Positions 6,001 to 9,000 of a stretch of DNA of 20,003 bases are shown here, one piece after another. The stretch lies in the IMG/VR virus record IMGVR_UViG_2563366959_000003; one strand, 5' to 3'. This stretch comes from a virus. Its lineage: Duplodnaviria; Heunggongvirae; Uroviricota; Caudoviricetes. The stretch's first letter is position 1, and each line of letters starts with the position of its first letter. Made by a program: the position numbers.

Positions 6001-9000
6001 AAGACATTAACCCATCTGGCTGGCGGACGCTGGGCTGAGTTCCATACGGCAAGGCGGGGATTTATCCGGCTGGGAAAACGACTGGGCTTTGAGCGAATGC
6101 CGGATGATGAGGATGGCTTCATGGTGTTCAGGATAGCGGTCTGACTGCTACAGTTTTCATCATTGTGTTTAAACCAACATTGTAATTCACATTCTGACCC
6201 TGCTCCGGCAGGGTTTTTTGTTATCCAGGGGGCCATTATGGGTGGAAGTAAAGGCGGTGGTGATACCAAAGTAAAACCAACAGCAGCGCAAATAGCACAG
6301 GAAGAAGTGGCCTGGAAAGGGTGGCAGGATTACAAAAATATCCTCCGCCCGGCTGAAGATAACTTCATGGAAAAGGTCGATGACCTGAACAGTGAGCAGC
6401 AGTACGACAATATTGCTGGCACCACAAATCTGGGGTATCAGAAACAGTTTGGCGAAGCACGGAAGGAGCTTGCGGGTAATCTTGCTCAGTCCGGCGTTGA
6501 CCCATCCAGTGGTCGTTTTAATGCGGTAATGAATGCGAACCAGAGTGACCAGGTAACCGGGCAGATTGACACAACCACACGGGGGCAGGTATCGCAGGCA
6601 GATAAGTATGTTGCCGGGCTACAGGATGTTGCTGCTCTCGGTTCTGGTCAGAAGGCGGATGCGTTACAGAGTTTTAACTCTCTGGCAGACAGCAGTCTGG
6701 CAAAAGCTAAATCGGATGCACAGGCGGCGTTTACGAAACAGCAGGGGCGAGCCTCTCTTGTTGGCGCTGGTCTGGGTGCGGCAGGTGCATATGCGATGCA
6801 TAAGGCTGGCGGTAGCGGAGGAAGTGGCGGTGCTAAAACACCTGGCACCGGCGCTAATGCCATTCAGCATCAGGCTCAGAACTGGAGACTGTAATTATGG
6901 AGTATGGCAAATACGAAACTCTCGCAAGGGCTGGTTATTCAGGAGCAGACCGCCCACAGGGTGACTGGCAGACGTCAGCAGCGCTGACACGCCAACAATA
7001 CGACGACTGGCGAACCAGATATTTGCCCCGCGTGGCAAGGCTGGCTGACCTTGGGGAGAACAACAGTCTGATGAATGCACAGCTTGCACGGGTGGGAGGC
7101 CTTGCCACTTCCAGTCTCCGTACAGCGCAGATGGCGCAGGATAACCAGATGGCGAGATACGGGGTAAACCGCCCGGATAATCCCGACAGTAATACGCTGG
7201 GGTTACGTAATGCCCTGGCAATTGCTGGCGCGAAAAATGGTATCCGTGAAGCCGAACAGGATCGCCAGATGAATATTCTGACGGGGGCTTCTGCACCGGC
7301 AAGACAGAAACTGAGTGTTGGCGGCCAACTGGTGGCAGCGTAAGGGGGCAATATGGGATACGGTTTACTGGATATTGCAAATCAGTCGCGGCGTGAGGCA
7401 TTACAGGGAATAAGTGACGCAGACAGACGACGTGAAGAAATTGAGGCTGCGAACAAACAGATGGCGGCGCAACAGAAAGCGCAGAACAAGCAGAATATCG
7501 GTACGGGCATTGGTACGGGGGCGGCTATTGGCGCATCCGTTGGTGGTCCTGTTGGTGCTGTTGCTGGAGCAGTAATTGGCGGCATTGCTGGTTCTTTGTT
7601 TTAAGGAGTGGTGAATGAGCGGATTTGCACAGGGGTTACTTGCCGGATTCAGCACCGTTGACCAGGCAATGACCCGTCGTAAGGAGCTTGGTCTGCGTGA
7701 AGCACAGCTTGCCCGGCAACAGAAAAATAACGAGCGCGATTTTGAGTTTGCGCAGTCTCAGTTTGAACATAATAAAAACGTTGATCAGCGGAACTTTGAT
7801 TACAGAGCCAAAGTTGACGACCGTAATTATGCACTGAAGGAAAGGGAGTTTAACGCTAACCAGAATTACCGGAATGCGTCACTGGGTATGGAGCAGCAGC
7901 GACTCCAGTTGCAGAAATACAACCAGCGACGGCTTGAGTATAACGATATGATTGCCCATAGCCAGCCACTAATGGAAGCGCTTGGAAAAGCAATTGAGGC
8001 TGGCGATCAGGAGGCTGCAACGCGTCTGTTCGGGCAGCTGCCAAAGGGACATCCATTAATTCTTATGTCAAACGAAGGCTATGCAGCGAAAGCGGGTCAG
8101 GCCGTGATCAACCTGCAAAAAATCTTTGGTGATAAGCCGGACATGGCGATCGATTCGCTGAATACCCCGGAAAATCTCGATGTGCTTTCCGGCGTGTTTG
8201 CCCCGGAACTACAACAGCGTATTGGCATGCCTGATTCAACCGGGGACAAAACGATAAAAGAGGCCAGGATTGGCAGTATCGTACCAGCGCAGCAGGAAGG
8301 GTACGTACTTATTGGCCTTGATCTCACATACAGCGATGGCTCCACCGCGCATAAACCTGTAACAGAATACGGCAGTGCGCACCCTGATGATCAAACCGTG
8401 CTGGCGATACCCGTTGATAAGGCTATCGCTCAGGTCAGGGATCGCAGCAAATTTGCAGAGATATCGAAAAATTATGGTTATTTTATGCCGAAGCAGCAGG
8501 GACTTTCTCTGAAAGAGCTTCAGAAGGGGGCCAGCAACGTAGCGGCGGACGCGATCAAGAATGGCGGTAATGCTCAGGCTGCGGTGGATGAATATTATGC
8601 TGCGACTGGTTCACAACCGCATCAACAGAAAATTCAGCAACAAAAACTTCAGCAACAGGTTATCAACTGGGCGGGAGATGATCCTGATAAGCTGTCATTT
8701 GCCAGAAATGTAGCGGCCCGTCAGCCTGAAATGCTGGAACCTCAGAATCAGAAATTGCTGGAGAACGGGTATGCGAATTTTCTCCGTATTCAAAAGGCCA
8801 GGGGGGAACAGGCCAGAGATGAAAGTGCTTCATCTGCATCTCAGTTTATCCGTGGACTGAAACAGAATTACGCCCAGTAATTCACGATATTCCATTAATA
8901 CCATTTCCTGATGCCCGGCCATTGTGCCGGGTTTTTTTATGGAGTCTGTATGGCCTATTCAGAGGAACAGCGTCCTGAGGCGCAACTCGGTAACCAGAAT

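Follow-up and report, generated by a model that had tools for sequence, protein, structure and literature searches.

A 20,003-nucleotide stretch of viral DNA (IMG/VR record IMGVR_UViG_2563366959_000003; hereafter the window) holds the late region of a short-tailed Shiga toxin (Stx) phage of the Sp5/933W/phi24B type, and five consecutive genes within it, here called A, B, C, D and giant (Table 1), probably form a cassette of ejection proteins in which the small product of gene C is an ejected subunit bearing an outer-membrane hairpin of the type seen in P22 gp7. Membrane insertion combined with hetero-oligomeric packing in an ejection channel appears to be the best reading of three parts, gene C, gene A and the giant protein's N-terminal domain, and it is partly supported by profile homologies. 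Sequence features, conservation, gene order and the homologies (gene C with the gp7 tail, gene C with gene A, and the giant N-terminal domain with that of the N4 virion RNA polymerase, vRNAP) were computed here. Published papers are the source for the virion location of A, B, D and the giant protein, for the P22 pore structure and for the insertion of the N4 domain into nanodiscs.

A preliminary description of this DNA had pointed out five glycine-zipper hydrophobic segments, one in gene C, one in gene A and three in the giant protein. All five peptides are present in the sequence, in frame and close to where they had been placed. The gene C peptide comprises residues 50-83 (nt 7500-7601, in frame), and the coding sequence, 7353-7604, is exactly the interval that had been singled out. 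That gene C ends in a glycine zipper was borne out in two ways. First, it contains eight GxxxG motifs, compared with 2.3 +/- 1.2 in shuffled sequences, and is the sole enriched protein among gene C, gene A and giant. Second, its glycines are nearly invariant. A profile search of 1.84 billion representative proteins returned 564 representative homologues, nearly all 76-90 residues long, 143 of them at E <= 1e-10. In an alignment of 136 homologues, each representing a 50%-identity cluster (mean identity ~36%), G56 and G72 were conserved in 100%, G68 in 98%, G76 in 95% and G52 in 89% of sequences, and G65 and P66 of the turn in 88% and 86%. The layout common to the family is a polar helix, a first GxxxGxxxG, a GGP turn, a second GxxxGxxxG and a terminal LF, and the median member has an uncharged run of 37 residues that extends to the last residue and includes six GxxxG motifs. 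An AlphaFold2 (AF2) monomer of gene C, built from a seven-sequence alignment and usable for secondary structure only, has a helix at 55-62, a break, and a second helix at 65-82.

This C-terminal region resembles the tail of P22 gp7. Comparison of the gene C family with gp7 193-229 by hhalign gave a probability of 92.9-93.4% (E 2.4-3.6e-7) and a score of 44.1, while 60 composition-preserving shuffles of the gp7 tail scored 13.2 +/- 3.2, with a maximum of 25.5. The alignment is anchored at both C termini (...GPVGAVAGAVIGGIAGSLF in the gene C family and ...TPWGAAIGGGIGLLGSLF in gp7), and the proteins themselves end in ...AIGGGASGAIAGAGLAKLIGSSTPWGAAIGGGIGLLGSLF (P22 gp7) and ...GTGIGTGAAIGASVGGPVGAVAGAVIGGIAGSLF (gene C). 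The polar helix ahead of the zipper can be aligned both to gene A 130-173 and to the Pfam P22_gp7 profile, in the latter at positions 151-190. Among 101 family members scanned against Pfam, 68 matched Gly-zipper_YMGG, 32 matched PF25688 (P22_gp7), 24 matched Bacteriocin_IIc and two matched T7_gp14; the PF25688 matches were at E <= 0.01, the best at 1.7e-8. One homologue, P0034, lies over its whole length on positions 151-230 of the 230-position P22_gp7 profile, with 27.3 bits, just under the gathering score of 28. A helix-turn-helix zipper with proline at the turn, ending on the last residue as in gp7, is thus found in gene C by hhalign and, at low confidence, in the AF2 secondary structure, whereas the full gp7 architecture (N-terminal helix, tail-hub fingertip and returning helix, in ~209 mature residues) is not found in this 83-residue protein.

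The function of the gp7 tail has been described in a September 2026 preprint reporting near-atomic in-situ electron cryo-microscopy (cryo-EM) of infecting P22 (bioRxiv 10.64898/2026.09.03.749273). The gp7 C terminus forms a V-shaped helical hairpin, contributing two helices per subunit to an outer-membrane pore of 36 helices, of which 24 short ones come from 12 copies of gp7 and 12 from gp20 (~51-66); the gp7 helices contact and pack against those of gp20. Residues of gp7 located in the bilayer are I191, L204, L208, I218, I222, L224, L225 and F229 (10.64898/2026.09.03.749273). Positions 71, 75, 78 and 83 of gene C (consensus I, V, L and F) align with I218, I222, L225 and F229. The gene C hairpin is therefore probably the same module as the V-shaped gp7 C terminus, and gene C would be packaged, ejected and inserted into the outer membrane, with A and probably D as putative partners.

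Zippers resembling that of gene C were also found elsewhere. The corresponding profile, phrog_594, matches five to eight stretches in each of four tape measure proteins (P0077, P0085, P0094 and P0121; E 1e-10 to 1e-16) and, weakly, the crAss001 cargo protein. A sequence search of genes A, C, D and giant against solved structures gave just weak zipper matches, to crAss001 cargo gp45 and a Dot/Icm OmpA-family protein, and NCBIfam gave only zipper matches under threshold for gene C (PdsO). Three database proteins are fusions of gene C with gene D: P0070 (442 aa), in which the gene C polar helix is joined straight to the N terminus of D and the zipper is lost, P0046 (220 aa), a readthrough of the gene C stop codon into D, and P0138 (150 aa). 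These may be natural variants or artefacts of assembly or frameshifting.

The zipper shared by genes A and C reflects common descent. When the two families were compared by hhalign, residues 130-187 of A matched residues 4-61 of C (probability 84.3%, E 7.2e-6, score 37.6); the reversed control scored 17.2 and column-shuffled controls 12.5 +/- 2.1. By this measure the recurrence in A and C, which the preliminary description had noted, is real paralogy. The gene A peptide quoted there (residues 174-198, nt 6757-6831, in frame, reported near 6760-6840) held up in part. Its first portion, 174-187, is a short small-residue helix of ~12-14 residues that keeps its character across homologues, with G176 near-invariant; the character of LVGAGLGAAGA is retained in all homologues, whereas the GGSGGSGG that follows is variable. 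Over its full length gene A shows no enrichment in GxxxG (5, compared with 3.9 +/- 1.7 in shuffles), and none of its 19-residue Kyte-Doolittle windows exceeds 1.0. Gene A also has a possible link to gp7 of its own. The two N termini are similar (GGSKGGGD... in A, KGGKGGAD... in mature gp7), a greedy alignment keeps residues 2-195 of A colinear with 21-213 of gp7 and places the gene A zipper at arm 1 of gp7, and three of 75 gene A family members match Pfam P22_gp7 (best E 9.3e-4). Together with the paralogy, this colinearity suggests that gene A probably encodes an ejection protein of the gp7 type with one arm only. The gene A module contains the first zipper arm alone. Gene C, by comparison, would seem to be a duplicated tail module that is encoded on its own and has the complete hairpin with both arms. 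Both assignments are moderately supported by the profile comparisons.

Most products of the cassette have been detected in virions. In phi24B, gp47 (giant), gp48 (D), gp50 (B) and gp51 (A) are present at ~20-45 copies per virion, ~22-27 for gp51 by proteomics, and are absent from the cryo-EM map; gp47 was proposed to be an ejection protein and its organisation listed among the open questions, and gp48, gp50 and gp51 were called hypothetical (10.64898/2026.04.10.717836). The gene C product, gp49, was detected with six spectra when whole virions were digested, and its "bacteriocin" annotation led the authors to class it as a contaminant (10.64898/2026.04.10.717836). By those authors' length normalisation, (6/86)/(101/724) x 12, six spectra correspond to ~6 copies, a calculation that returns 2.1 for the adaptor gp62, of which there are truly 12. 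Read off the sequence, trypsin would release only four peptides of 7-13 residues from gene C, and one uncharged peptide of 37 residues. Genetic data are available for Sp5, in which deletion of ORF79 (D) or ORF80 (giant) abolishes infectivity while DNA is still packaged, and deletion of ORF76 (A) strongly reduces infectivity (PMC5155283).

The annotation that led to the dismissal of gp49 deserves consideration, as gene C could encode a class II bacteriocin, a microcin-like peptide or another membrane-active prophage peptide, for instance one acting in superinfection exclusion, with no role in the virion. NCBI uses the family name 'bacteriocin' for gene C in E. coli records (homologues P0001-P0033), the zipper has a weak Pfam match to Bacteriocin_IIc (PF10439; E 8.8e-4, with 24 of 101 members at E <= 0.01), gene C is dispensable for plaques, and gp49 was treated as a contaminant by the phi24B authors. 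However, the Bacteriocin_IIc match amounts to 19.7 bits, below the gathering score of 27.1, and P22_gp7 matches in the family are more numerous and have better E-values. The N terminus (MGYGLLDIANQSRREALQG / MGYGLLDIANQSRREALQGISD) has no double-glycine leader or leader-type GG cleavage motif, and none of the adjacent genes encodes an exporter or immunity function; in 13 of 13 loci they are virion genes. Gene C is, in addition, a paralogue of the C-terminal module of A, itself a virion protein. We consider a bacteriocin-like role very improbable, and the name, which rests only on the composition of the zipper, is probably wrong. A holin or lysis role was rejected as well; the window has no lysis context, and its genes are arranged as virion genes are.

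At the other end of the cassette, residues 32-425 of the giant protein, its N-terminal domain, matched residues 98-444 of N4 gp50, the vRNAP, with an hhalign probability of 96.7% (E 3.5e-10) and a score of 80.3, compared with 14.3 for the reversed control and at most 23.3 for local shuffles. This comparison makes it a homologue of the N-terminal domain with which the N4 vRNAP inserts into membranes. The N4 domain enters nanodiscs, has a predicted membrane-spanning region at 224-278, and is proposed to form an inner-membrane complex with gp51 (PMC13434306). Two segments of the giant domain are of interest in this respect. The first, 182-205, was absent from the preliminary description, has the highest hydropathy in the protein (Kyte-Doolittle 1.38 at 182-200) and aligns within the predicted membrane-spanning region of gp50. 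The second, 407-426, is the zipper reported near 10150-10230, and it proved well founded; a Gly/Ala stretch followed by a basic cluster is present in nine of nine distant homologues, its Kyte-Doolittle value is 1.14 (407-425), and in N4 it aligns with GLGALYGFGSAGVVQAPAG. The gene C profile also matched giant 379-425, weakly (probability 40%, E 3e-4; score 32.1, compared with 16.8 +/- 3.3 for shuffles). Outside the N-terminal domain, phmmer and hhalign comparisons with full-length N4 gp50 gave nothing, the C-terminal region included. Profile comparisons of the N- and C-terminal parts with T7 gp16, and of the N-terminal part with P22 gp16 and gp20, gave no match. Pfam detected no RNA polymerase domain after the N-terminal domain; LPD5, LPD1, MuF_C and LPD38 are found instead. 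With several LPD and effector domains combined in a single polypeptide, and with virion genes around its own gene, the giant product is a polyvalent protein.

The remaining two segments, which had been reported near 16290-16600 and likewise taken for zippers, did not withstand analysis. At 2451-2463 a hydrophobic helix is conserved (Kyte-Doolittle 1.22 at 2449-2467) and the glycines are not, and 2540-2552 lies within a lineage-specific insertion that distant homologues do not have. An AF2 model of residues 2330-2793 (42-sequence alignment) had a mean pLDDT (predicted local distance difference test) of 74.5, with the upstream helix at model residues 116-139 (pLDDT 81-87). Foldseek of this LPD38-region model against the PDB retrieved just long-helix proteins (E >= 0.09) and gave no fold assignment. 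The C-terminal segments are ordinary parts of the helical region around LPD38, not zippers. Only the segments of gene C, gene A (174-187) and giant (407-426) are conserved as such, and three of the five can therefore be regarded as real zippers.

These results also bear on whether the recurrence is merely a compositional coincidence among Gly/Ala-rich linkers in a GC-rich phage region, with no common function. Neither gene A nor the giant protein (26 GxxxG, compared with 19.9 in shuffles) is significantly enriched as a whole, two of the five quoted segments are unconserved, the GGSGGSGG of gene A is variable, and for giant 2540-2552 coincidence does hold. On the other hand, gene C glycines are 95-100% conserved at i+4 spacing in 136 sequences of ~36% mean identity, the shuffled and reversed controls lie far under the real scores for all three profile matches, and the GC content of the window is only ~50-57%. 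These data largely refute coincidence for the segments of gene C, gene A (174-187) and the giant protein (407-426), and as an account of the recurrence in general coincidence is scarcely credible.

Genes B and D are less readily connected to known proteins. Gene B lies between A and C in every related locus and has no zipper. The position of gene D is that of P22 gp20 and N4 gp51. Profile comparisons of B and D with P22 gp14, gp7, gp20 and gp16, of A, B, C and D with N4 gp51 and gp52, and of the same four with T7 gp7.3, gp13, gp14, gp15 and gp16 gave nothing. Residues 1-47 of P22 gp20 line the gp7 channel. The N terminus of gene D (7615-7700, + strand; ..GLAEGFLAGFNT.D..) and those of its homologues resemble the N-terminal GGFLAGIGAQ of P22 gp20, an anecdotal likeness that has no statistical support.

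Several observations weigh against the interpretation of gene C as an ejected, gp7-like membrane subunit. Direct BLASTP of gene C against gp7 found nothing, so the link requires profiles; the gene C protein of the window itself has no match to Pfam P22_gp7 at E <= 0.1 (gathering score 28 bits), and the aligned region spans ~31-37 low-complexity columns. The match of gene A to gp7 reached a probability of just 43% (E 2.5e-4), and hhalign detected no homology of gene D to P22 gp20, T7 gp15 or N4 gp51. The AF2 model of gene C has a low-confidence pLDDT of 55. Its tail has a Kyte-Doolittle value of 1.69 in a 19-residue window (family median 1.44), under classical transmembrane thresholds, and an insertion cost of ~+5 kcal/mol, summed per residue over the best 19-residue window with a biological-hydrophobicity scale. 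The low hydropathy is qualified by the fact that the arms of the gp7 hairpin are short too (10.64898/2026.09.03.749273). The proteomic signal of gp49 is low and no proof of packaging. Finally, the in-frame single deletion of Sp5 ORF78 (C) was not among the mutants defective in plaque formation or lysogeny on K-12 (PMC5155283), so that gene C is non-essential on this host, whereas gene 7 of P22 is essential. A classical Sec-inserted transmembrane helix was rejected for gene C on the summed insertion cost, and none of the segments of the preliminary description scores as a classical Sec-type transmembrane helix.

The poor predicted insertion propensity and the mild knockout phenotype would be better accommodated if gene C were an assembly factor whose zipper packs against helices of A, D or the giant N-terminal domain inside the capsid or tail lumen, for loading, spacing or plugging, and never enters a membrane. 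Glycine zippers also pack helices of soluble proteins and lipoproteins, and the gene C family has Pfam Gly-zipper_YMGG/Omp matches. By analogy with the first 16 residues of N4 gp52, which dock in the adaptor lumen, the strongly conserved N-terminal motif of gene C might be a docking peptide in the tail lumen, and the C-D fusion proteins in databases would also fit. Against this, the homologous gp7 tail has been observed inside the outer membrane in situ, the uncharged 37-residue run to the C-terminal LF is kept across the family, and the same zipper occurs in tape measure proteins, which are ejected. Assembly and membrane roles are moreover compatible, as P22 gp7 is stored in the virion before inserting. 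An exclusively intravirion role thus seems to us unlikely, albeit less so than a bacteriocin-like one.

Under the ejection-cassette interpretation, release of the needle would allow A and C to leave through the nozzle. Their zipper helices would insert in the outer membrane, packing tightly glycine to glycine against each other and probably also against an N-terminal helix of D, and D would span the periplasm. The giant protein would enter last, its N-terminal domain anchoring at the inner membrane via 182-205 and 407-426, and the LPD5, LPD1, MuF_C and LPD38 modules would be delivered into the cell. The glycines would let helices of different subunits pack against one another very closely within the membrane. 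The proposal of the preliminary description that the zippers belong to a membrane-inserting, hetero-oligomeric ejection or channel complex is supported for gene C, through the gp7 hairpin, and for the giant N-terminal domain, through its N4 homology, and not for the giant C-terminal segments; its alternative of a membrane-targeted effector found no support.

A more far-reaching possibility, which we put forward only tentatively, is that the polar helix and zipper hairpin constitute a portable cassette that has been duplicated and moved among ejected proteins. P22 gp7 would carry it in cis, gene A in a one-armed form and gene C as a free-standing subunit; tape measure proteins would have tandem copies, and another copy may close the N4-type N-terminal domain of giant cargo proteins. 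A, C and the N terminus of D might then form a mixed outer-membrane pore, with free C subunits tuning its size or sealing for the passage of the 2,793-residue protein, a function that might be needed on hosts with smooth lipopolysaccharide and not on K-12.

The ejection-cassette interpretation is consistent with the genomic context. Over bases 6100-9100 the window matches Stx-converting phages, among them VT2-Sakai/Sp5, with 100% identity, and 186 phage records match. The gene map in Table 1 was read off the annotated VT2-Sakai record, and all genes mapped there are on the + strand. Cassette genes are separated by 2-10 nt, save for a gap of ~30-70 nt ahead of the giant gene, and each is preceded by its own Shine-Dalgarno sequence; gene C lies 9-10 nt from each neighbour, within the late virion operon. 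The order nozzle, needle ... ORF75-A-B-C-D-giant is retained in 13 loci from Vibrio, Aeromonas-type and metagenomic phages, across which gene C identity falls as low as 31%; in some of them unrelated genes are inserted ahead of the D-like or giant gene.

Table 1. Positions of genes, domains and segments in the window (nucleotides; residue numbers refer to the respective protein).
Feature	Position	Strand	Remarks
Nozzle-type protein	604-2307	+	VT2-Sakai H0140 / Sp5 ORF70
Central fibre	2304-3572	+	Sp5 ORF71
Lom	4579-5313	+	VT2-Sakai map
ORF75	5743-6144	+	133 aa; no Pfam match
Gene A	6238-6894	+	VT2-Sakai H0146 / Sp5 ORF76 / 933W L0130 / phi24B gp51; 218 aa
Gene A module, residues 130-187	6625-6798	+	Paralogous to gene C 4-61 (helix and first zipper arm); hhalign
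Gene A zipper LVGAGLGAAGAYAM	6757-6798	+	Conserved in character
Gene B	6897-7343	+	Sp5 ORF77 / phi24B gp50; 148 aa
Gene C	7353-7604	+	Sp5 ORF78 / ECs1240 / VT2-Sakai H0148 / 933W L0132 / phi24B gp49; 83 aa
Gene C N-terminal motif MGYGLLDIANQ	7353-7385	+	Conserved; G4 76%, L5 80% across family
Gene C polar helix, residues 3-48	7359-7496	+	~27% charged; AF2 helix, pLDDT ~60
Gene C zipper arm 1, residues 50-63 GTGIGTGAAIGASV	7500-7541	+	G52/G56/G60; aligns with gp7 193-209; AF2 helix 55-62
Gene C turn, G64-G65-P66	7542-7550	+	Aligns with P22 gp7 S211-T212-P213, hairpin turn
Gene C zipper arm 2, residues 67-83 VGAVAGAVIGGIAGSLF	7551-7601	+	G68/G72/G76, terminal LF; aligns with gp7 W214-F229 WGAAIGGGIGLLGSLF
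Gene D	7615-8880	+	Sp5 ORF79 / phi24B gp48; 421 aa
Giant gene (polyvalent protein)	8950 (or 8911)-17331	+	Sp5 ORF80 / phi24B gp47; 2793 aa from ATG 8950; Pfam domains all above gathering
Giant N-terminal domain, residues 32-425	9043-10224	+	Homologous to N4 vRNAP (gp50) 98-444 by profile comparison
Giant 182-205 VWVAKGVNLIGALVPDMVAGGVAR	9493-9564	+	Conserved; aligns with N4 gp50 ~230-255, inside 224-278
Giant zipper 407-426 IEGAAFGAAMGAPFGAVAGY	10168-10227	+	Closes N-terminal domain, then basic RGRR; aligns with N4 gp50 426-444
LPD5	12100-12549	+	Pfam 6.5e-45
LPD1	13030-13269	+	Pfam 9.7e-24
MuF_C	14197-14466	+	Pfam 1.3e-17
Giant 2451-2463 LAAVGAGYLLGSL	16300-16338	+	24-residue predicted helix just upstream of LPD38
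LPD38	16375-16992	+	Pfam 1.7e-48
Giant 2540-2552 VVGGVLGAFSPIG	16567-16605	+	AF2 helix end and low-confidence loop

Additional observations were made on other parts of the window. ORF75 precedes gene A in 13 of 13 loci, the same place as gene 14 before gene 7 in P22; hhalign of ORF75 against P22 gp14 and T7 gp13 was not significant (probability 2%), with only a YLPE[VI] piece in common. The Lom gene encodes an Ail/Lom-family outer-membrane beta-barrel (Pfam E 1.4e-31), forms an insertion separating the fibre genes from the ejection cassette, and coincides with a dip to ~41% GC. The giant gene has two in-frame ATG codons; the GenBank VT2-Sakai record uses the one at 8911 (2806 aa), and Mondal et al. 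and phrog_616 fit that at 8950. Residues ~1182-1437 of its product (12490-13260, + strand) contain two HExxH motifs, HEWFH and HEIIHH, overlapping the end of LPD5 and LPD1, and match NCBIfam CLCA_X (E 2e-43, below cut-off); this region looks like a zincin-type metallopeptidase. The phi24B preprint assigns the peptidase to MuF_C (10.64898/2026.04.10.717836). Past the giant gene, the opposite strand encodes a YgiW/YdeI-like secreted protein (17882-18226, -) according to the VT2-Sakai annotation, and the GC skew flips sign around 17882-18558. A small open reading frame at 18346-18558 (-) has 50 C-terminal residues that resemble a Hok-type toxin, and one at 10-219 (+), starting VAVGRKNWMFAGS, may represent the C-terminal part of a transposase of the IS66 family.

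Shiga toxin genes are disseminated by short-tailed Stx phages, whose DNA and a 300-kDa protein must cross the cell envelope. Ejection proteins with membrane helices are already known, and no new principle is proposed here. What is new is that the cassette is tied to two experimentally dissected systems, the P22 gp7 hairpin and the N4 vRNAP N-terminal domain, which leads to predictions testable at the level of residues (G56, G68, G72, P66 and the terminal LF of gene C; 182-205 and 407-426 of the giant protein). A further suggestion is that polyvalent "conflict" proteins use an N4-type domain as their vehicle for delivery. The "bacteriocin" name carried by the gene C family in NCBI E. coli records is a probable systematic misannotation, and it is the reason why the gp49 virion-proteomics hit was set aside.

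Among known systems, the closest parallel for gene C is P22 gp7. In both, a C-terminal zipper helix-turn-helix with proline at the turn ends in G-x-L-F at the last residue and is preceded by a polar helix, and both genes belong to an ejection cassette, with the needle gene on one side and a gene of ~420-470 aa on the other; gene A approximates mature gp7 in length and has a similar N terminus (GG-K-GG-D...). Gene C, however, corresponds to only the last third of gp7 (83 compared with 209 mature residues), lacks the tail-hub fingertip, and is encoded separately, gene B intervening between it and the gp7-like gene A.

In the N4 ejectosome, too, a giant protein (~2800-3500 aa in the two systems) is encapsidated and encoded beside smaller ejection proteins (PMC13434306). 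The N-terminal domains of giant and gp50 are homologous and contain Gly-rich hydrophobic segments, the Sp5 major capsid protein has an N4-type capsid domain, and the phi24B capsid has T=9, as reported for N4-related phages. In contrast to gp50, the giant protein has no RNA polymerase and carries LPD5/LPD1/MuF_C/LPD38 cargo, the C-terminal domains are not detectably related, and A, B, C and D have no detectable similarity to gp51 or gp52. Gly-rich small-residue hydrophobic stretches occur in the N4 ejection proteins at gp52 72-88 (LGLGGLNALGNIYGA) and gp50 118-140, 230-255 and 418-444, and such a motif may be general in podovirus ejectosomes. The T7 gp14/gp15/gp16 system shares a division into a small outer-membrane, a mid-size periplasmic and a large inner-membrane subunit, and gp14 (~200 aa) has hydrophobic ends rich in small residues; the gene C family has two weak T7_gp14 matches. 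It differs in having three proteins and not five and a lytic transglycosylase domain in gp16, and no pair has significant profile similarity.

In long-tailed phages, tape measure proteins probably contribute to a membrane conduit. Like the cassette proteins they are ejected, and they contain the gene C zipper repeatedly; unlike in gene C, the zippers are internal repeats in proteins of >800 aa from another virion morphotype that have no MGYGLLD motif. Class II bacteriocins (PF10439) and Gly-zipper lipoproteins (PF13441, PF13488, PF05433) share with gene C a GxxxG-rich hydrophobic region of ~30-40 residues. Gene C scores 25.7 bits against Gly-zipper_YMGG (PF13441), under the gathering score of 28.9, which a few homologues pass (e.g., P0039, 29.6). 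It differs from these families in having no double-glycine leader, lipobox, signal peptide or export/immunity genes, and sits in a virion operon. Lastly, the giant protein resembles the polyvalent proteins of Iyer et al. (2017; PMC5512222) in possessing LPD5, LPD1, MuF_C and LPD38 above Pfam thresholds. That work makes no mention of transmembrane or glycine features, and an N4-like delivery domain and glycine zippers are added to the picture here.

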